A stretch of 60,754 nt of DNA, the filler included, from Sphacelaria rigidula (lineage: Eukaryota), in assembly GCA_964200075.2 (NCBI GenBank). It is 9 parts of 9 records of this genome, joined end to end, with 100 filler letters (N's around TTAATTAATTAA, not from the genome) between each part and the next. Parts side by side here need not be neighbours in the genome. Positions count along the whole stretch, not along the records: positions 27,049 to 33,710 come from CAXNAA020018763.1; 8 more parts are not named here. The stretch is one strand, 5' to 3'. This document shows positions 3,942 through 42,275 of the stretch, piece after piece (the stretch's first letter is position 1; each line of letters begins with the position of its first letter). Under the pieces are notes generated by a model. That model ran no database searches. It was not told the origin of the DNA and saw only the letters and a list, made by a program, of their open reading frames with translations. The position numbers were made by a program, and so were the translations under genes.

Positions 3942-4104
3942 TATACATCCTTCGCGGTTTGTTGCGCCCTTCGCCGTTAGCGGTGGAACTCTTACTGTTT
4001 TGTCTTGTCTGCTTAGATCGTGAAGTGCATCGCGAAGTGCTCAACAGAAGATGTGACATTCCTTGTTTCGCGTGTTGCCATTTACTTCAACTTTGCTGTG
4101 ACAG

Positions 4105-4218
4105 ATGCAGCCGGCGTTGGAAGGGCATCGTTTCGGAATGGTGCCTTCCGAGAAGGCGGAATCTTTTTACCGAGCTTACCACGCCTATCTAAAGGACAAC
4201 GGTGTCGATGGAGTCAAG
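4105..4218 (+). CDS. GH36 raffinose synthase/SIP-like gene, exon B
   Basis: cag|ATG...AAG|gtaac, phase 0. Encodes MQPALEGHRFGMVPSEKAESFYRAYHAYLKDNGVDGVK; joined to the next exon it gives the catalytic GVDGVKVDVQ motif. Confidence 0.9.
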
Positions 4219-4321
4219 GTAACCGTTTCGCTTCATCACGAGGTGGTGGTCATTTTCTAGGACGCGCTGGGCCTCTTTCGGGGACAGCTCAGGCACCCTT
4301 TCTCTGTCTTGCGTATCTTTC

Positions 4322-4421
4322 GTATAGGAGTAGGAACGGTGCTCCGTCTCGAAAGGGATGCGTGGTCAATGGTCAAACGACTGAGGCAAGCAACAAATGA
4401 ATGCGGCCCCTGCCCCTCCCC
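4322..4421 (+). mobile_element. 3' end of poly(C)-tailed LINE (5'-truncated)
   Basis: Encodes RSRNGAPSRKGCVVNGQTTEASNK* followed by a C-rich tail; matches the copies at 25.2, 30.1, 33.6 and 41.5 kb. Confidence 0.75.
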
Positions 4422-14282: not shown

Positions 14283-15141
14283 AGCTCCGCCTTCATACCA
14301 CACGGTCCTGGGTCGATTGCGCCAGTCTCAAACCGATTAGGTATGCCTGGTAAAACACTTGGTAAAGCTATTGGGGGGGCACAGGGGGAATAATGACCCT
14401 GTGAAGAAGACTATGACGTGATTCAACTGCGGCTGACACCTGAACCCGCTCGAGGATGAGACACTAGGCACGATGGGAAAGGCGACTGTTTGTGACCCCT
14501 ATCCGCTCCGAAGAAGAAAACTAAACCCCAGACGATCTCTGAGAGCAATATTCGCCAATCAACAATGAACTGCGCTCGACCACTGCTGAACACTGAATAC
14601 GACGCCATCTATCTATGCTTTACCAAGTAACCTAAACGTTAAACGCTGTGCGTGCGTGCCCACTGCTATCGGACTGCGACAGGCAGGCAATGTTGTATCA
14701 CGCATCTTTAGAGTTAAGTCGCGGGTTCAATACTCTGCGTAATGTAGGTATGACAGGTAGCCATGGCATGTTACGATACTGAGCATGTGTATATCGCCTG
14801 ACCATCCACGTAGCTTATGTGCACATTGCGTGGGACACCCCATCCATGCCTAACAAATGTAAAGCATTAATTGCCAGTGTAACAGTCCAACTAGGTGGGT
14901 TACTTCTCGGATGAACCATCTCACCAAACCCCGTCCACCAACATCTCGAAAAGCACCGTGACCTGTGTGCTATAGCTCGGAATCACACATTCGAATTTTC
15001 AATCAAGCCTGTGGCAAGTGAGGTACAGCCCCTGGCTGACCTTTTCGTTAACGACATCCCACTTCGGTTCACGACACCCTACATATATATATATATATAT
15101 TTACGACGCCCTACTTGGGTTAATGACATCCCCCACACACG

Positions 15142-15789
15142 TTTACAACACCCCACTTGGGTTTATGATTACCCACCTAGGTTTACGACACCCAACTTAG
15201 GTTCACGGCACCCCATTTCGGTAAACATGGGAGTGAAACTAATCCGCCACGAAGCCTGTACTATCCCCTGAACAGCATCAATCCAGCAGATACGGACTCG
15301 ATTGGCCCGCAATCCTCCCAACATGATAGTCAAAGATATCACAAAAAACCCACACAAGGATATTTACAACACCCCACTTGGGTTTATGATTACCCACCTA
15401 GGTTTACGACACCCAACTTAGGTTCACGACACCCCATTTCGGTAAACATGGGAGTGTACCTAATCCGCCACGAAGCCTGTACTATCCCCTGGGCAGCATC
15501 AATCCAGCGGATACGGACTCGATTGGCCCGCAATCCTCACATTATAGTCAAAGACCTCACGATAAACCTATACACAAGGATATTTACAACACCCCACTTG
15601 GGTTTATGATTACCCACCTAGGTTTACGACACCCAACATAGATTCACGGCACCCCATTTCGGTAAACATGGGAGTGTACCTAATCCGCCACGAAGCCTGT
15701 ACCATACCCTGAACAGCATCAATCCAGCAAATAGGGACTTGATTGGCCCGCAATCCTCACATGATAGTCACAGATCTCACAAAAAACCA
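15142..15789. repeat. About 220-bp tandem repeat, 3 copies, with internal ~21-bp subrepeats
   Basis: TTTACAACACCCCACTTGGGTTTATGATTACCCACCTAGG starts near 15142, 15363 and 15583. Confidence 0.92.
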
Positions 15790-16458
15790 CAGGCCCAGTA
15801 GGTAAGGTGGGTACCCGGTACCGGTATTCGGGACATGTCATACCCTACCCATATCGACCCAATCCGGTATTTTCAAATGTCATACCTACGATACCTACGA
15901 TACCAGGGTATTTCGAGATCTCAACACCTACCGTACCCGCCCAATATGGCATTTTCAAGACTCATACCTACGATACTTATGACATCAGGGAATTTCGAGA
16001 GTTCAATTCCTACCGTACCCGCCCAATCCGGTATTTTGAAATGTCGTACCTACGATGCCTACGCATACCACGGTATGGATACCCCGGTAAATAGCGGGAT
16101 ACGCTCGGTACGGTACCTCACCTACGGTGCCTGCGAAAACTTCGACTATCCAACTTGCAACCGGATCTGAAACGCTTCGCACTGCCAGATGACAGTTTTG
16201 AATTCGGTGCAGAGGGTAAGGTGGGTACCCGGTACCGATATTCCGGACATCTTATACCCTACCGATACCGACCCAATCCGGTATTTCCAAATATCATACC
16301 TACGATACCAGGGTATTTCGATATTTCAATACCTACCGTACCTGCCCAATCCAGTCTTTTCAAAACTCATACCCACGATACCTACGCATACCACGGTATG
16401 GGATACCTCGGTAAATACCGGGGGTACGCCCGGTACGGTACCTTACCTACGGTGCCTG
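15790..16458. mobile_element. Two adjacent copies of a CAGGC-TIR MITE family (15790-16133 and about 16210-16458)
   Basis: Ends CAGGCCCAGTAGGTAAGGT and ACCTYACCTACGGTGCCTG, with many ATACC/TACGATACC subrepeats. An inverted related copy lies at about 27175-27765. Confidence 0.7.
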
Positions 16459-20320: not shown

Positions 20321-20445
20321 AGGGGGGGGGGGGGGGCATGTACTCGTGATTTTCCATGCGGTAGTCACATGACCATTGACCTCGCATCCCTACAAAGCCG
20401 GGTCGGAGCGCACCGGGTTTCGCCGGATCAAGCTCGCAATCACCA
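20321..20445 (-). mobile_element. Sister family sharing the poly(C)-LINE 3' tail; also at 1-56 (+) and about 24950-25230 (-)
   Basis: GCTCCGxCCCGGCTTTGTAGGGATGCGAGGTCAATGGTCATxTGACTAC...TGAG plus a C-run, with G-runs on both flanks. Confidence 0.65.
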
Positions 20446-20945
20446 GAGTCGGGGGGGGGATCGAGCGAACTTTGGGCCCGAACAAGCAATTTCTGGGAAC
20501 AGACGACCCGCCGGGGGTGATGGGTGACCTACTTGCTGCTACCATCCCCGGCGTATACTGTTTCATATGCCCATGCATGCAGCTCTTCTTCCTGCCAACA
20601 CGGCGCTATGAAAGCATTCGTTAGGACAAGACGCACAGGAGTGAGGATAAAGGTGCAGTGATTCATCCTGGAGGACGGGGGGGGGAGCGTGAGGAGGGGT
20701 ACAACAGTGCTCATCTCGTATGATCACGGTTCCGATTTTGACTTCTGCAGAAGTAGGGTGGATGAGACAAAGCGAGCAAGGGCACGTCGAAGAACGGCCG
20801 GAAAGGGATACGATATGCAAAGCACAATACGAGTGAAACCGTTATTCCACAATAACGAGCTGATTTTGCGGCCTCTGAGCCCTCCTTGAAATATGCCCAA
20901 GACCGACAGGCTATGGTATGCTGATTCGTGAGTCTTCACGAAGGG

Positions 20946-22891: not shown

Positions 22892-24157
22892 CTGGCGGAA
22901 TGATAAACCACTTCAACGGACAACCGCGAAAGAGATGAGGCGGATGTGGTCATCACCATCAGAGGTGAACGGGAGTATCAATGTGATGGTACACAAACGC
23001 ATGGAGCCCACACCCCCGAAGGACAAGAAAGCAGAGGGTGACACGACGAGAATTAGCGAAAGGGACGACAGACAGTATCACGCGTGCGAGACATCGGACT
23101 GCATGCCTAGCTGGCACGCGCTGGACGACGACAGCAACGTAAATCTACGACGAGGTCGATGGTCGAAGCAATTTTCGAGTGTGATCTACTTGAGAATTCA
23201 GTTATTTACCTGCCCCCCCCCCCCCCTCCTCCCCCCGGACGGTGCTCCGTCTCGAAAGGGATGCGTGGACTTGAAGTAGTTATTTCTTTCGGAATAAACA
23301 TCGAATTTTGCAGTCACGACAGCTCATACTAGTGCACGAAATCTCAGCGTTGGGGAGATAATATTCTTCGCATCCAGGCGTATACATACATGTATATAGT
23401 GCTTGCATGACGGCACGCCCAGCTTGATAGCGTGGGTCAAATTCCGAAAATATATACTATAGGTGTCTACACGAATCACTCTCAACGTCCCATTCGATAA
23501 CACGATCAAGACTCGTATATATTGCCCGTGGTACTAAGTCACAGTTAAAGATAAATCTTGGCTATGATCTAGCCTACCGTGGGTATAATCACGAGATGTG
23601 CTGGGTTTACACAAAAGCCCCAATGTTGACCCTCACAACATGTGGGCGGAAATTGCTCGAGGAACCATCGACCTACTATGAGGCTAATAGATATAGATAT
23701 ATATATATGTGTGTGCACAACAAGAATCGAAGCGGTGAATCATTCCGAAATTGATCGGAATCACCTTGCAATATCGCTCCGGTCGATCTCACCCATATCT
23801 GGTGTATCCAGATAGATCGCACGCTTTACTTTTGTAGCAGAGGAAGCGTGTATAGCTCAATCGCTCATGCTTTACCTCCTCTAATATGTGCGCAGTTTTT
23901 CCCTTCACGTGAACTTTGCGTCGCCACGTCCCGCGAACCGAATTCCTGTACAGAAATAGCTGTCTGTTTGCCGGATGCCGCAAAGCTAACGTCTGGCGAG
24001 CAAAGGTAGGTCATGTTTTAACTCTCTCATCTGCTACTCCTGCACATGGGAGACGATCGTCTGTGTATAGCGAAAAGCTCGTTGCTGTGTATGTGCATCG
24101 CTGCAGCACACAAAAGCCCGTTGAAATTCGTCTACGAAGCAGTGGTATATATATATA

Positions 24158-24778: not shown

Positions 24779-25237
24779 TACATGTATGGATATCGATTGA
24801 GAAACAATCCGATAGTCTGCGAGGGTGTGCTGACCCGATCACTGCTCGATAGGACTACCCGCAATCAAGCACAAGGCGAGTACCGAGAGAAGTCTAGATA
24901 TGCATGGGTTAACCCCTTGAGATAGCCTGAAGACTAGATCCAAGGAACGAGGGGAGGGGGGCAGGGAGGAGGGGGGAGGGGGGGGTGCTCATGATCTTGC
25001 ATGCCGTAGTCATATGACCATTATTGACCTCGCATCCCTACAAAGCCGGGACGGAGCACGCTGGGTTTTTGCCCGACCAAGCTCGCACTCAATCACCAAG
25101 CTCGAAGCGCCGTGGTGTGTTCGGGTAGTTGCATGAGGGGTGAGCTGTACCCTGCTAAGATTGTTCGGCCCGAAGCCTGCTGAATATCTTGCGTTTGGAT
25201 GACAGCCTACAATGAGTTGATTCATTTTCCGGGATCG

Positions 25238-26127
25238 CGGGGGGGGAGGTACTTATTTTTGGCTTGCCTTAGTCATCTGACCATCCACCACGCATTCCTT
25301 TCGAGACGGAGCACCGTTCCTACTCCCAATAGAGACACCTTCAACAATTCGGCTCCCACTACGTTTTTACACATACTGCATAAGAGCCATATACATATCT
25401 TATCCCCTTCCTGTGCCGCCGTATGTGGCCACCATCTCTCTCGTGGTACGTAGAGCGATCGTTTTCTCGCTAATATCTAAGGAACAAACGTTTTCGTGCC
25501 ACACTCGTTTAGTTTATCATTTCTTACTCTACCTTCCTGCTGCTCCTTCTACAGCTCATGTTCTCTCACTGCATAAGTCCTATTCTCTGTTGCCTTGCAA
25601 CGAGGTCAGTTTTGTGCATGCTCTCCCCGTCCATACTACTACTGGTATACCTCTTTCTCCTTTTCGGCAGGTTCTGACCCCAACCCGAAATCGCACTTAC
25701 AGTATTTTCGCGTAGTCCATTAGACTATGCAAATATCATGTCTAACTACTCTGTATCCCCATCTCTTCTCTCAACCCCCCGTATATTCTTCCTCGTCCAC
25801 TTTCTGTCCTACAGCGCTAGCTTCTCCCTTAGTTTCATCCTTTCTTTTACTCTTGTCTTGTATTACCCCCACTTACCTGTGGACATTATATGCCCCTGGC
25901 TTCCTCTTATGTCTTTCCACACTTTCTCATCCACGTCATCCGACTTTATTCCAGCTTCCCCTCTTGTCACTTTCTTCCATACAGACCTATCAACTATGGC
26001 CTGTGACCCTTTTCTTAGCATGTTCCATACACGATCTTTGCCATTTTAACCTTCTCATGTCAAGTGGATACATTCGCATTTATGCTTTCAAGACCGTACT
26101 ACTCGTAGTTTTTGAGCATCCAAGCTT
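25238..26127 (-). mobile_element. Degenerate 5'-truncated poly(C)-tailed LINE (ORF2 C-terminal region)
   Basis: Frameshifted peptides LGCSKTTSSTVL, DMRRLKWQ, AIVDRSVWKKVTRG, RFRVG, RRKRYTSS, SEKTIA, WWPHTAAQEGDK and SRNGAPSRK. Its distal part is collinear with the 30.1-32.06 kb copy. G-runs at both ends. Confidence 0.8.
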
Positions 26128-26632
26128 AGGAGGGAGGGGGCATTGAAGTTGCGACAAACAGTAAGAATTAAAAACGCCTCCCAAATCTCAGTCAATAATT
26201 TCGTGTCTTTGGGTCGGGATCTTAGAACTGCCTCGTTGGCGGAGAGGTACATTATAGTCATTCTCCAGCGAGTCATTGTATACTCATCGATACGAATGAC
26301 CTTGACCTGGTTGTAATGTAAAATACTCCCAAAGTCAGGTTCCGAAAAATGTCAAAGGGTGACGTGCGCGTGAATTCACTCACCAATACCGCGAGGGCGC
26401 CAGCAGACCACATGAACCAGGCAGTTTCCCAAAACTCGTCCTTGTCAGGAGCAAGAACCAGGTCTACGATCGGGTCGAAGTATAGGGCGCCGGAAGATGC
26501 GGGAAATCTGACGGTGAAAGATGACGTCCCGACTAGAGGTAGAGACTCCACCTGTCCCCCGTATATACAATGTCAGGGTAGATAGTGGTGAAGGCAATGA
26601 TCGTCTCTTTGAAAAGCGTTAGCATTAAGACA

Positions 26633-26890
26633 GACATTTTCTACGATAGCCCCCCCCCAAAACGCTCCTAGTTTGGGGAGGCAAAATGTTCACGTAAATC
26701 GAAGCGGAAAAAGCCGAGCCCAACGAGCAGCTGGGGAATTTCCACGCTTGGGTTCGTTCTCACCAATATCGCCCATATGAGGCACTTCATGCAGCCTGGA
26801 CCCAAACATCAGGCGCTGTATGAGCACTTTTTTTCTTCAAACTTTTGGGATGGTTGTGGGGGGGGGGGGGGGGCTATGGTAGAAAGTGTC
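26633..26890. mobile_element. MITE; partial copies at about 40352-40471 and 54224-54335 (inverted)
   Basis: TIRs GACATTTTCTACGATAGCCCCCC / GGGGGGCTATGGTAGAAAGTGTC. Confidence 0.75.
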
Positions 26891-27174: not shown

Positions 27175-27765
27175 TGTTTACCGGGTATATCCCCGGTATT
27201 TCCCGGGGTATCGCATACCGTGGTTTGCGTGGGTATCGTAGGTATGAGTTTTGAAAATATCCGATTGAGCGGGTACGGTAGGTATTGGAATATCGAAATA
27301 CCGTGGTATCGTAGGTATCGTAAATATGAGTTTTGAAAATACCTGATTGAGCGGGTAGGATAGGTGTTGAATTATCGTTGAATTATAGCAATACCGTCGT
27401 ATCACAGGCATCGTATGTATGGGATTTGAAACTACCCGATTGAGCGGGTACAGTGGGTGATGAAATCTCGAAATATGGTGGTATCGTAGGTGTCGTTGGC
27501 ACGATTTTCGAAAATACCCGATTGGGCGGGCACGATAGGTATTGAAACCTCGAATGACCGTGGTATCGTGGGTATCGTACGTATGCCATTCGAAAAACCC
27601 GATCGAGCGGGTACGGCAAGTCTTGAAACCTCGAAATATCGTGGTATCTTGGATGTCGTAGACATGATATTTGTAAATACACGATGGATCCCGTATCGGT
27701 AGGGTGAGAGATGTTCCAAATACCGGTACCGGGTACTGGTACCTACCAATAACCTAGGGTGCCTG
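27175..27765. mobile_element. CAGGC-TIR MITE family copy, inverted relative to 15.8-16.5 kb
   Basis: GGTATCGTAGGTAT subrepeats; ends ...GGTACCGGGTAC...GGTGCCTG. Confidence 0.65.
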
Positions 27766-29584: not shown

Positions 29585-30120
29585 GTGGGTGCGATTCATT
29601 GTCCGGTGGACGGGGGGGAAGAGGAGGAAGCAGTGAAAAGTTGAGTGGGTGCACTTTTCAAAATTTGCTTAGGGTAGGGTGGGGTACTGAGTATGATATC
29701 TTCTGAGATGCCGGTATCTTGGGTACACTGGAGCACTGAGTATTTCCGACAGTCAACGTAAGTACCCTGCGAAGCCTGGAATACCCCATCTCGGTGTGCC
29801 GGGGAGACGGGTTTACCCCAGCTCGTATCCCCGAATACATGGTTAGAAATTTTTTGAAACGTCGCTAAAACCCTAACTCACACCCGAATCCGTACCCAAG
29901 GCATACCCAGAACCCTCGGGCAAGGAGGCGTGCAAGGGGTGCCTTGGGCAAACAAAGTGTGCGTTGGCAGACCTTACAAGCGGTGCCGATTTTGATTAAA
30001 ATGCGTTCTGTGCGCGTTAGGGAACACTCGGGACTGTCAACATCACCAAAGATCCGAATATCGGTGTTTACTCTAAAATCAAGCATGTTTCAACCATGGA
30101 TTTGGGGATACGAACCGGGG

Positions 30121-32063
30121 CGGGGGGGCGTACTCATTTGTTGCTTGCCTTAGTCGTTTGACCCGTGACCACGCATCCCTTTCGAGATGGAGCACCGTTC
30201 CTTCTCCTAATAGGAACACCTTCAACATTCCGACGCTCATTACGTTTTTCTAATACGTTACGTGAAAACTAGGGCTGTGAACTGGCTGCTCTGGCCAGTT
30301 ACGTTTAAACGAGCCGCGCCAGCGGCCAGTACATCGATTGTTTTCCAGTTAATCGGCTCAGCCGATTAACTGGAAAACAGTCGGCGGCAAGCGGCGGCTG
30401 GTGAGGGGACCCCGCGGGAGCGCCGTCGGAGGCGAGAAAAATTGCGATATTTGGCTTGTTTTTCCTTAAAAAATGTGGAAAGTTGTAGAAAATCTACAAG
30501 TCTTGGATGACACAGGAGTGCTCGACAAAAAAAACTCCGAGACCCTATGTACCGCTCCGCCCCCCCGGCCTTCTCCCCCTCTCCCCCTCCCCGCCTCCGG
30601 CGGTCGTAGGATTTGTTTTCTTCACATCAAGAAACACTCAATAAATAGCCAGTTTGGGGCGACTTGGGTGAGGTAGCGCCCATGATTGTTGGCCCTATCT
30701 ATCTGCCACCACAAGATGCGATGCACATTGGGCGCAAATTGACGGTGCAGATAGTTGCGTCTAGCTTGATTGAGCAAGCATTGCACAGCATTGTGGTATT
30801 TGTCTGGCCTTGTTCTTGTCGTGTAAGTGTGATGTGCAATGTATTGCAGAAAACCATAAATGTAACTTCGCCTTACTTGGCTCCGAAGGTAAGCGAAGGA
30901 TTAGAGCTTCATGAACACGAATTGAAGTTTTAATACAAACCATTTTTTTTTTTATTTATTTTATTTTATTTTATTTTGTTTTGTTTAGTTTAGTTTTATT
31001 TTATTTTATTTTGTTTTTTTTTATTTTTGTTGTGAATGAGATTTGGTACCCCCCTCCCCCCCCCCCTCGAAATACGCCAGGATTCAAAAAAGGGGCATAG
31101 GGTCTCGGGTTGTTTTTTTGGTGCACTCTCGGATGAGATTCAAATCCCATTCAAATCGTGAGCGATTCGAAAACCATTCATCTGTAATATGCAGCTGCAG
31201 ACTCTCCGTCAGAAGAGGATAATGCGAACAAGCCAAGGCTGGTAGCACGCGGAGCGCAAAATGATTCACGTCCGGACCCACAAGCACGCATGCAGTTGAA
31301 TTGCAAGCCATGGTGTACTTTGTATTTCGTGGTCGCGGATTACCGTTTGTGTGCTATTTTTGATTCCAGATGTATGTCCTGCTATGAAGCGACAAACCTG
31401 GCATATATCCGCAATATCACTTCGAGGTGTAGTGACCACGAGTACTGTCCTGTACTGTCTGTACCTGTACTGTTGTCAGGTGCAGACCCTTATCCTGTTG
31501 CCGTTTTGTTCGTGATCATGTAAGCATCTTTGTCATAAACGCACCATACTAATAATGGTACAAACATAGCCGGTAAAGGCAAAGTTCAAATAAACTGAAG
31601 TTCTCATCACCATTTCCAGTGAAACTCCAGTTCCAGTTTAACTGCCAGTACAAACTGGTCCAGTTCACAGCCCTAGTAAAAACCGGTTCCATATCGTATC
31701 CCCGTCCCGTTTCGCCGTCTGTGGGCACGTTCTATCTCCTCATATGGCCATCGTTTTCCCCTACTGTCTCCTGCATCATACGATTTCATGCCACCTTCGT
31801 TCGCGCCCCACGTTTCCCCCTCTAGCACGTCCCGTTCCTCCTTGCATAGTTGACATTTTGCCACTATGTGAGTTCCGCTTTCTATTGCTTGACCGCAGGG
31901 GCAAATTCTGTGCATCCACGTCCTCGTCCTCTCGACTACTGGTATATCTCTTTTTTTTTTCTGGCAGGTCCAGGTCACCCACCCAAAATCGCATTTTCCA
32001 AAGTTTCGCCGCGTCAATTGGGCCATGTAGATGTGTTTTCATCCGTATCCCCTGCTATGAACT
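30121..32063 (-). mobile_element. 5'-truncated poly(C)-tailed LINE with TSD, interrupted by a hAT-like element
   Basis: Peptides MKTHLHGP, RFWVGDLDLPEKKKRYTSS, the CCHC knuckle CPCGQAIESGTHIVAKC and KRNERRNVEGVPIRRRNGAPSRKGCVVTGQTTKASNK*. TSD GGGATACGAAC(C/T)GGGG at 30105-30120 and 32064-32079. Confidence 0.85.
30270..31675. mobile_element. Non-autonomous hAT-like DNA transposon (1.4 kb)
   Basis: Perfect 16-bp TIR TAGGGCTGTGAACTGG, 8-bp TSD GTGAAAAC/GTAAAAAC (7 of 8 match) and subterminal CCAGTT repeats. Confidence 0.9.
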
Positions 32064-32175
32064 GGGATACGAACTGGGGGGGGGGAACTCTACTGATACG
32101 AGGGAGGGCGCGTCAGCTCGACAACAGAAGAAAAGTTGAGAGACAAAGATGTTCTTGTTTGCACCTTTCGCACAG

Positions 32176-32321: not shown

Positions 32322-33606
32322 GTAGGTTGCTGGATATTGACCCGAAGGCGGGACGCTGTGGAGGATGATGCACAAAGTTTTACACCCTGGATAATGACAA
32401 CATATAGTACATTGTCAAAACATGTACTGCGACAGTACGGGATCTGTTGTGTATCGCAAGAGACGCAACAGTGGGCACTGAACACATTCAGCTTTTTTAC
32501 AACGTAATCTATTTGTCATTATCCAGGGTGTGCAGAGTTTTTATCCCTTGTTTTTCCTTGCTCTCATTTCCTTCTGGAGGATGACTGTAAATGTGTGTGC
32601 TGTTGATTGATACGTTTTGTTTTGTTCATTGTTCGTGGATGATGATTGACTGCAAATTGTGTGTTGTGTGTTTTGTTTTTGCCTTTTTTTACTCATGTGA
32701 AAGTGGATGGCTGTACTCTGTGTATGCTATTTTGTATCTCGTTGTTGTCGTGCAGTACTTGTTTCTCGTGTTGGCATCATCCAGTTTTGGTATGTTGGCC
32801 TTGTAGAGTGTTTGGATTTTTTTCTGTCTTCAGGCATTATTGAGGTATTCATGCGGCCACTTTGTTCATGTTTTATATTGGCTTCTATACGAATGCATAC
32901 CTTTGGCGACCGATAATTGTATGGTCCAAATTCGGTGTTGAGAAACATGAGCGTCCAGGAAAAGATTGAGGGGAGTCTATATTCGATTGATAAATTATCG
33001 CACTTTAACTAATCCAGGAAGCCTCCTGTGACAGAACAAGTCTGAAACACTCGGATAAGAAAAGAGAAGAAAAGAGAAGAAGAACAAACAAACAGAGTAA
33101 ACGAAGAAAATAAGAGAACAGAAAAAAAGTAGAAGATAAATCAGAAAAAAAGAAAAGAGGAAAGGAAAGGAAAGGAAAGGAAAGGAAAGGAAAGGAAAGG
33201 AAAGGAGGAAAAAGAGAAACAGCATCAAGGGAAGGTATAAGAGGAAAACTGTTGTGGCGGGGGTAGACACAAACTGATACTCAAGGCGATATTCAACAAT
33301 AAAAAAAGTCGTGAAAATAGACGATTGAACATGATCCACTCACTTGTAAACTTGTAAATAACGTGCTATAGATGAGTCATACCACAAAACGTTAACCCCT
33401 GACTTCAGCACTACCGTAAGCTGAATATCTTTGCGGATGTCGTGATACTGATTTTCGCACAGTAACTGATCCCAGGGGCACCCCGGGGGTCGCAAGATAA
33501 AACGTCATTTTCCAGTGAAACGAAATATTCTAAGTTTGGTGGGAAGCATTGGATTTTTGGACGTGTCGATTGGTCTTGATTATTCCCCCCCCCCCCCTCC
33601 CCCCTG

Positions 33607-33710
33607 ATGCTCCGTCTCGAAAGGGATGCGTGGTCAATGCTCCGTCTCGAAAGGGATGCGTGGTCAATGGTCAAATGACTAAGGCAAGCAACAAATGAGT
33701 ACGCCCCCCC
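33607..33710 (+). mobile_element. Short 3' fragment of the poly(C)-tailed LINE with an internal 30-bp tandem duplication
   Basis: C-run upstream, then (ATGCTCCGTCTCGAAAGGGATGCGTGGTCA)x2, then ...AACAAATGAGTACGCCCCCCC. Confidence 0.8.
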
Positions 33711-33810
33711 NNNNNNNNNNNNNNNNNNNNNNNNNNNNNNNNNNNNNNNNNNNNTTAATTAATTAANNNNNNNNNNNNNNNNNNNNNNNNNNNNNNNNNN
33801 NNNNNNNNNN

Positions 33811-39829: not shown

Positions 39830-40634
39830 GATTTTGACATCGCCACAATTCGAGGAGTAATGCGCCCAGCTGGTGAAGCGGTGGCTTCAATGGAAGCTGT
39901 CACCTACACGATCAATTTGGCACATCACTTGATCGCAACGACGTAGTAGTCAGTCCATTGCAACAAAAGATCTCCTCTTTCAGGAAAAACCGATTAGTGC
40001 CTGAAACAGTTTCAGTTCCGAAATGCCCCCCGGGCGTAAAAATGCTATGTGCGGTATCTCACCAACCAGACCGCCGAATTCCTCGAATGGGGTACTGGAC
40101 GGTAGCTGCATGCACAGAACGTGTGCTCAAAAAAAAAATAGTTGCCTGTTGGGCCGTTTCTTCCGGTTCGTATTTTGTTTGGCTCGTATTTCCTCCTTTT
40201 AGGACATTTGACGAGGTTTTTGACCCCCCAAACAGGAAAAAGATAGCCACCACACGTCTTGGACACTTTGTATCACCCCACCGAGAGGAGCCTAGACCAC
40301 TTTTCCGATTCGCCTGGGTCAGAGATTTCGAGAGCCTTCTCTAAACAAAAATGACACTTTCTACGATAGCCCCCCCCCAAAAGTGCATGGTTCTGGGACG
40401 CAAAATCTTCACGTACATCGAAATGGGAAGAGCCGAGCACAACGAGAAGCTGGGAATTCCAACGCTTGGGTNNNNNNNNNNNNNNNNNNNNNNNNNNNNN
40501 NNNNNNNNNNNNNNNTTAATTAATTAANNNNNNNNNNNNNNNNNNNNNNNNNNNNNNNNNNNNNNNNNNNNCCGGGCGGGCGCGCCCACATGTACCGAAA
40601 TGTGTAGACCGGCGTACAGAATAGAAGGGATGAC

Positions 40635-40927: not shown

Positions 40928-41540
40928 CCGGCGGCAAGTACGGATCTTGAACCTGCATGCGTGTGTGTGTGCCATTCTCCATACCGTTGCAACACTGTGC
41001 GCCAGGGTGGGAGTTGTACCGGCCATGGGGATCGCAATTGGATACGTCACACCTATCCGTGTTATTCCCGAACTTATCACGTAGTAAAAGTCAACTACGC
41101 AGTAGATCCAAAGATGTCCGAGAGTGAAATCGACAACGACGGAGAACATAATCAAATGATGAATAGCGAGTCAGCCCACCAACGATTATCAAATACTTTG
41201 ATCGCTCTAGGGGGGCACAAACTATTTGTTTCCCAATCGTCAAGACCTATAAGATATACACGAGTCATGCCACTGCAGGGTTGCACAATATATTTATCAG
41301 GCGCCCTTTACATCGCCCAAAAAACGACCTATGAAATGTGGAAGGGCACGTTATGATTAGATTTCCAACGGGTCAGGGATATCTCCAATGAATCGTAGGA
41401 CGGAAATATTTTGAACTATATTCTTGTGAAGTTCTCAATTTTCGGAGCCCCTCAATGGGAAAGATCTGAGTCCATATCTGCGACCCCTACCGTGAGATGA
41501 CTCATGTCGAAATATCATCGCACAGACGAGTGGAATCAAG

Positions 41541-41597
41541 GGGGGGGGGGGGGCGTACTCATTTGTTGCTTGCCTTAGTCGTTTGACCATTGACCAC
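41541..41597 (-). mobile_element. Minimal 3' fragment of the poly(C)-tailed LINE with TSD
   Basis: Encodes VVNGQTTKASNK*; GGAATCAA plus a G-run flanks it on both sides. Confidence 0.85.
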
Positions 41598-42275
41598 GGA
41601 ATCAAGGGGGGGGGGGGGGCGGGGGGGCCAAGNNNNNNNNNNGGGGGTGGTGGATCCGGAGGGGGGGGGTGGAGGGGGGGGGGGGGGGGGGGGGGGGGCC
41701 AAGCAAACCAAATAGACCATTTGATAGAATATGAGCATTTTTCGGCTGATAAGATTGCAGAATTCGCCGTTTTTCTTGCCCAACGTTGACACCCACACAT
41801 CAGAAAAGGGCTCGAAATGAATGCATGAAAATGGAGAACAAGCGCAAACATCTCATTGAAAAACAGGCATTGAAAAAAAAAAAATGAATGAAAGAACCAT
41901 AGCTCGAACGAAATCATGTGTTCCGCAAAGAAGTAGTTTTTCGGAGTGGNNNNNNNNNNAAATACATGAAAAAGAAGAACAAGCGCAAACATCTAATTAA
42001 AAAAAAGAAAATAAAAAAAAAAAATGAATGAAAGAACCATAGCTCGAACGAAATCATGTGTTCCTCATTGAATTTTTTTTTCGTGAGAGTGAGAGTAGAG
42101 GATACGACTGAGAGTGCAAAACAGCCAATTAGTGAATTCATCGTTTTTGTTCCGAAATGACCCTCCGCGAGGCCCAATATCCTTTTTGTAGTAGGTTGCC
42201 ACTGAGGCCCTTGATATCCCTGAGTAGTATATATCAACGTGTAGCTGTAAGCACACGCCAGTGATGTATATAGTC

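Follow-up and report, generated by a model that had tools for sequence, protein, structure and literature searches.

Poly(C)-tailed copies of a LINE family and their C-run insertion sites in the Sphacelaria rigidula genome

A 60,754-nt stretch of DNA joined from nine records of the Sphacelaria rigidula assembly GCA_964200075.2 (hereafter the window) contains a LINE whose copies end in a run of C, which raises the question of whether this tail is a general habit of the family and whether the family inserts at matching G/C tracts. A first-pass annotation had placed five copies and a tail-less fragment with a common 3' end in the window, and self-BLAST recovers all six stretches at those positions. 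Each full copy closes with the end of the ORF, 5 nt and a C-run, as had been claimed, the tail at 4.3 kb being degenerate. This short plus-strand copy (4325-4410) has a C-rich tail, lacks a clear C-rich tract at its 5' junction and lies downstream of a raffinose-synthase-like exon (4102-4221). The exon belongs to a raffinose synthase/Sip1 gene (PF05691, E 1.6e-5) and has a GT donor, with the LINE copy sitting ~100 nt into the following intron. The plus-strand fragment at 23239-23268 bears no tail and follows a C-tract (23213-23236) that includes C14, in agreement with the annotation; it begins at the base of a 67-nt terminal module discussed below. The 0.88-kb minus-strand copy (25249-26124; 25239-26140 with flanks) has a C8 tail at 25239-25246 and a C-rich tract at its 5' junction. 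A 66-nt-type copy on the plus strand (33608-33703; 33585-33710 with flanks) carries a 30-bp tandem duplication and lies behind a C13-T-C6 tract, and its C7 tail runs into a gap. That join (33711-33810) and the seven other gaps in the window consist of N and contain a 12-bp linker with stops in all frames. The 45-nt minus-strand copy (41554-41598; 41532-41619 with flanks) is bounded by a perfect 22-bp target site duplication (TSD) consisting of C14 and 8 unique bases. With the main copy (30129-32053, minus strand) included, the 5' junction adjoins a C-rich tract in four full copies out of five, all but the one at 4.3 kb, so that the description of such runs in most copies holds. A Pfam search of 12 window ORFs gave no significant match.

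The stretch 30105-32079 had been described as a 2-kb LINE copy. A LINE is present there, but it amounts to only ~510 nt because 30270-31675 is a nested element. On the minus strand, the 3' copy of the 16-bp TSD (30105-30120) starts with four C in element orientation and is separated by one base from the poly(C) tail, seen as G7 on the plus strand (30122-30128). The 3' LINE part, comprising the ORF end and a 5-nt 3' UTR (30129-30261), is 85% identical to the intact relative L201 and includes the conserved 67-nt terminal module (30129-30195), which is common to a non-autonomous partner and whose base coincides with a cliff in 5' truncation. The 5' part of the truncated copy (31690-32053) is 82% identical to L201, matches the protein P0001 by BLASTP (E 8e-12) and contains the previously noted Cx1Cx8Hx4C knuckle at 31853-31903. 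It is followed by ~10 nt of filler (32054-32063) that begins with a repeat of TSD letters, and then by the 5' TSD copy (32064-32079) with a G10 run (32076-32085) where the TSD begins (whole feature 32064-32085). The two TSD copies are identical at 15/16 positions, which bears out the duplication proposed for this copy.

The nested element is a 1.4-kb non-autonomous DNA transposon (MITE) with 16-bp terminal inverted repeats (TIRs) starting TAGGG and an 8-bp TSD (30262-30269 and 31676-31683, 7/8 identical), and by the TIR/TSD rule we take it to be hAT-like. Inside it lie another element with inverted repeats (30527-31118) and a palindrome (30335-30383), and the transposon occurs also in the duplicate locus L002/L039. 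The LINE is itself inserted in a host MITE that starts at 29816: the left terminal repeat lies at 29816-29857, and the TSD of the main copy falls within the right terminal repeat of the same MITE. The host MITE family is about 300 bp long and has 258 candidates in the genome, and the whole nest (29816-32095) is duplicated on contig C8617 with 95% identity. Nearby, a 150-bp element with perfect 19-bp inverted repeats occupies 32382-32531, and two tandem-repeat arrays (15132-16458 and 27179-27736) are related and lie on opposite strands.

The poly(C) tail extends far beyond the window. The last 20 nt of the element have 3662 exact matches in the 244-Mb genome of the same alga (0 for the reversed control), and at least five C follow the 3' end directly in 2603 of them. 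An A-run of five within 4 nt of the 3' end was found in six matches at three places, one of them an A8 directly behind the end, which rules out poly(A) tails for the family at large. For closer study, the first 100 listed matches were taken, minus seven without a 5' flank. The resulting 93 copies are 27-949 nt long with a common 3' end and variable 5' truncation, and 87 have at least six C among the first 10 nt past that end. Among five related loci in other public assemblies, four include the 3' end and all four of these have the C tail; in the contigs of two studies (four public runs), the loose ends are poly(C) behind the 3' end. Since C tails recur in other assemblies and independent runs, the tail is neither an assembly artefact nor a local feature. 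In thousands of copies the terminal run is of C and not of A, and this unusual habit is confirmed as real. Numerous element 3' ends also lie at contig ends, adjoining C-runs.

The flanks show where these copies came to rest. For 80 of the 93 copies the 5' flank was usable, 13 being excluded because of a contig end or N. Within 30 nt of the 5' junction, 55/80 have a C-run of at least five, compared with 2.8% of background windows (p about 1e-65), and 31/80 have a run of at least eight, compared with 0.7%; G-runs occur there in three copies, and 18 have no C-run of at least four. These figures uphold the suggested enrichment of C-runs over background sites. A TSD made of C-run plus unique flank was found in 22/80 (mismatched-pair control: mean 0.46, maximum 3). 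The strict TSD is absent from the other 58, which may be as expected for old copies. Under a looser exact-match rule 27/80 have a TSD (control 1.7), and the distance from run end to junction has a median of 6 nt and ranges from -1 to 16 nt. No fixed single target sequence or position emerged, the target being any C-run from three upward. Nine of the 80 copies are inserted in the tail of an older copy, either of the family or of its partner. In a repeat family represented at 26633-26753 and 40353-40471, a 9-bp motif is followed by a C9 run of that family's own, which the LINE appears to have entered independently in L121, L130, L132 and L139. Filler made of telomere repeats at the 5' junction, as seen in L044, was dismissed as a general feature (one match, compared with two for the reversed control).

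Pre-insertion sites could be rebuilt from empty paralogues among the fetched DNA. These already carry the run at three sites, with C6 at L050 (five empty rows, two of them one place), C4 at L118 and C9 at L121, and at L047 they have C-rich tracts. At the window's own site the run was just four long: empty host-MITE copies mostly read G4 then TA, among 28 loci that do not all reach the insertion site, and the left arm does likewise. The filled site and its duplicate have G9-10, so the long run arose with the insertion, after it or only in the window copy. In two host-MITE copies (L179 and L182) the G-run has expanded without any insertion. The lengths of the 5' and 3' runs are also related, as the 3' tract is longer than the target in 9/9 copies with a target of 3-5 C and in 0/7 with a target of at least nine C. 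Slippage and regression to the mean may inflate this difference, and interrupted C was counted on the 3' side only; the pattern is compatible with a short tail of the RNA, some 7-14 C, annealing to a G-ended primer.

The protein places the family among APE-type elements. In the own-genome copies L100-L104, the AP-endonuclease motifs WN, QE, GDFN, DY and TDH stand upstream of the reverse transcriptase (RT); an own-genome fragment matches PF03372 with E 3.4e-4, below the curated cut-off, and PF00078 is found in L031 (E 3.7e-10), where it is collinear with the 3' end, and in other copies with values up to 1.9e-24. These copies are about 80% identical and align along an intact single EN-RT ORF, but their frames are broken. 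L103 aligns to L201 from position 203, giving a LINE length of at least 4.8 kb. Intact relatives with a single EN-RT ORF are P0001 (1360 aa), P0003 (1328 aa) and P0059 (1340 aa). P0001 matches PF03372 (E 3.4e-12) and PF00078 (E 9.8e-31), and both it and P0003 combine EN, RT and knuckle and end in the C-terminal peptide of the window LINE. RT similarity to the solved L1 ORF2p reaches E 6.6e-21. RLE-type LINEs such as R2, CRE and NeSL have a PD-(D/E)xK nuclease behind the knuckle and no APE domain; this type was rejected, as an APE domain is present and no PD-(D/E)xK motif was seen in the ~100 residues after the knuckle. The family therefore classifies, on predicted domains, as an APE-type non-LTR retrotransposon of EN-RT-CCHC structure. 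Its non-LTR identity, assumed in the first-pass annotation, agrees with the EN and RT domains, the 5'-truncated copies and the TSDs. In an RT tree (FastTree, 24 sequences), three own-genome frames group with P0001/P0002; the next sister is Ectocarpus P0044/P0003 (0.975), followed by a second Ectocarpus lineage (0.992), so that two Ectocarpus protein lineages flank the window LINE family (support 0.99). The cluster of P0003 includes Ectocarpus proteins, and the RT of P0044 is 80% identical to that of P0001, with nearly the same C-terminal peptide. The Ectocarpus proteins in the tree are those of Ectocarpus sp. CCAP 1310/34, not Ec32 itself. By this tree the family nests among Ectocarpus LINEs, for which the trait is already annotated, without explanation. 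These named relatives make a brown-algal host probable.

The Ectocarpus source for this comparison, PMC12477816, is presumably Dinatale et al. 2025. Its supplementary file 1 describes RTEX-1_Ec32 as "single EN-RT ORF; (C)n 3'" and RTEX-2_Ec32 as "(C)n termini/TSD", and all six RTE-X rows of Ectocarpus sp. 7 are given a "C-rich" TSD (PMC12477816). The full length of RTEX-1/2_Ec32 is given as 5.5-5.9 kb, RTEX-N1/N2_Ec32 are their non-autonomous companions, and RTEX-N1_Ec32 is a 607-bp partner with a 60-bp 3' end in common (PMC12477816). The habit, thought in the first-pass annotation to be undescribed, had thus already been recorded for Ectocarpus relatives, though as a table entry; in the searched text and supplements of PMC12477816 there are no counts, empty sites, geometry, mechanism or cliff, and its main-text passages on these elements leave the tail unmentioned. 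The Ectocarpus elements are like the window LINE in their single EN-RT ORF, C tail, C-run TSD and partner with a common 3' end. The window LINE differs in its genome and in its older, decayed copies, and the comparison is one of table descriptions. The RTE-X label is that of the Ectocarpus curators (best blastp RTEX-4_NV and RTEX-1_BF). A Saccharina paper names an RTEX-1, the tail being unmentioned in the passages on it (PMC4421812). No further description of poly(C) LINE tails was found in the open-licence literature. As the trait was on record for Ectocarpus, the gain lies in quantification and mechanism and not in discovery; the present analysis contributes evidence from empty sites and junctions, together with the truncation cliff at 66-67 nt.

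It is established for LINEs that target-primed reverse transcription involves pairing between tail and primer. Human L1 nicks T-tracts and pairs its poly(A), and Zorro3 is an L1-clade element with two ORFs. The window LINE is like human L1 in its APE-RT-CCHC protein and in a TSD that begins in a tail-matching run; it is unlike L1 in using C/G instead of A/T, and L1 recognises the tail only. For Zorro3 of Candida albicans, all 30 new insertions were reported in poly-A runs of 4-21 (PMC1965478). Zorro3 resembles the window LINE as a target-primed element whose tail matches its homopolymer target, but the base is A and not C, and its targeting was shown experimentally, whereas here it is deduced from old copies. 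The LINEs Waldo, Mino (AC), Kibi (TC), Koshi (TTC) and Dong (TAA) likewise insert into simple repeats; these elements come from other clades and hosts, and none of those listed targets a C/G homopolymer (PMC3812793).

We consider it likely that the family is an RTE-X-type, single-ORF AP-endonuclease LINE and the G/C mirror image of L1 or Zorro3. The junctions show insertion in or beside existing C-runs, with duplications that begin in the run and extend beyond it by a median of 6 nt, and this geometry is consistent with the tail-target pairing that had been proposed. The protein would bind the conserved 67-nt 3' module of its RNA and nick the bottom strand in or at the G-run, although the position of a nick within a homopolymer is unreadable from sequence. 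The freed G-ended primer could then pair with the short C tail (about 7-14 C), which would be templated from the C-tract of the parent copy itself. Reverse transcription would begin at the paired primer, and the TSD would result from another nick, made a few bases (about 6 nt) beyond the run. Because an insertion duplicates the C-run and adds a tail, it would make new targets, and new insertions would stack in older tails.

Targeting might instead rest on pairing alone, with loose nicking or breaks at fragile G-runs and extension of only those 3' ends that can pair with the C tail. This is possible, if doubtful, and we hold it equally doubtful that specificity would consequently reside in the RNA and not in the protein. 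Targets of just 3-4 C are used, L044 is joined to its flank by a mere 3-nt GCC overlap, and the 18 copies without a run of at least four C agree with such loose targeting; the steep enrichment for runs of at least eight C argues against it, and other simple-repeat-targeting APE LINEs are believed to rely on endonuclease cleavage, as stated in PMC3812793. An unlikely alternative reverses the order of events, in that the machinery itself makes long C-runs, abortive tail-only insertions lengthening C4 sites until the element is a main source of G/C homopolymers. The window site, with G4-TA in empty paralogues and the left MITE arm and G10 when filled, would suit this scheme, as would the excess of C/G over A/T runs of at least 10 nt in the fetched DNA (194 compared with 67, in a sample enriched for the family). 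It is countered by the three other sites whose empty paralogues have the same run, by the G-run expansion without insertion in some empty MITE copies, and by the 23 of the window's 35 C/G runs of at least 7 nt that have no family member within 40 nt. The earlier suggestion that the LINE explains the many G/C runs stands in part, since a copy of the family or its partner is found within this distance of the remaining 12.

Addition of the tail after transcription by a C-adding nucleotidyltransferase, like the poly(A) of L1, seems still less probable to us. The 3' UTR of just 5 nt and a few long tails (C30 or more in L016, L030 and L055) would be in keeping with it. On the other side, the 3' tracts are mostly 5-14 C and never exceed long target runs, and the green-algal RTEX families in Table 3 of PMC3747384 have short templated repeats at their ends, and (C)n would be such a repeat with a unit of one base. 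An artefact of assembly or homopolymers, or the passive persistence of copies close to C-runs, is hardly credible: many copies do lie at contig ends adjoining C-runs, but the enrichment is strand specific (C in 55/80, G in 3/80), the TSDs begin in the run, and the same tails recur in independent runs and other assemblies. The C/G tail and target constitute a natural test of the shares of endonuclease and RNA-primer pairing in LINE target choice, and the intact relatives P0001 and P0003 make tail-swap and nicking assays possible.

The 3' end of the element is conserved. L200 and L201 are 97% identical over the last 98 nt and 79% overall, and a non-autonomous C-tailed partner (22 copies, the longest at least 526-549 nt) is 78-87% identical to the LINE over the terminal 40-50 nt. 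One partner copy (24978-25238, minus strand) lies directly downstream of the 25.2-kb LINE copy. The two are joined via the C tail of the LINE (24978-26140), and the joint could have arisen by a template switch or by an insertion at a junction that was already there. A second partner copy (20322-20459, minus strand) has a C15 tail and a C9 run at its 5' junction. A conserved 3' end common to LINE and partner is the pattern of stringent 3' recognition according to PMC3747384, and the conserved module and the partner element point to such recognition here.

Copies end sharply 66-67 nt from the 3' end, with 30/93 at 65-69 nt and 48/93 at 60-74 nt, and about a third to a half of copies end at the base of the 67-nt module. 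The 23-mer starting 66 nt from the end occurs at 2633 places in the genome, and 613 of these extend five bases more, compared with roughly 1500 estimated at ~10% decay per site. On the reverse strand, with one match listed per place, 665/1315 have four C within 14 nt upstream, and loose ends in four independent runs from two studies turn C-rich before the module at the same position. The cliff may reflect an RT stop, a nuclease-protected RNA remnant or a separate minimal element.

A tentative and rather doubtful reading takes the module as a minimal self-propagating retroposon, copied in trans by a LINE with an endonuclease that has changed over from T-tracts to G-tracts. It would include, with the same low confidence, a protein-protected RNA domain closed by a helix and left by 5' decay or cut from host transcripts. 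The module opens with six bases complementary to the six that immediately precede the tail, and short copies have fewer mismatches in 42 nt (median 1 in 42 copies) than long ones (3 in 20 copies; p 0.002). Against this reading, the helix is predicted for the isolated 67-mer only, with a closing probability near 1 that falls to 0.0-0.53 in a 140-nt context, and the 22 partner copies have no length peak at 66-67 nt. Window copies folded with flanks are no better than shuffles (z -0.3 to +0.8), and four 67-mers folded in isolation give z of -1.8 to -3.0, values biased by the choice of the module boundary after the fact. Short and long copies have the same majority sequence, so that a truncation hotspot fits equally well. 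If the minimal-retroposon reading were true, the 67-nt module would be among the shortest non-autonomous retroelements and younger than the long copies, and together with its C tail it would act to breed G/C homopolymers.

In the annotation of algal genomes, the thousands of 66-nt copies with their flanking C-runs are easily overlooked as repeats; these short copies are found at many contig breaks and duplicate homopolymers. The distant ENA relatives P0075, P0080, P0097 and P0102, which lie outside the algal clade, have a similar GCVV(D/N/Y)G end, and these peptide ends hint that the RNA 3' module may be older than the algal lineage.
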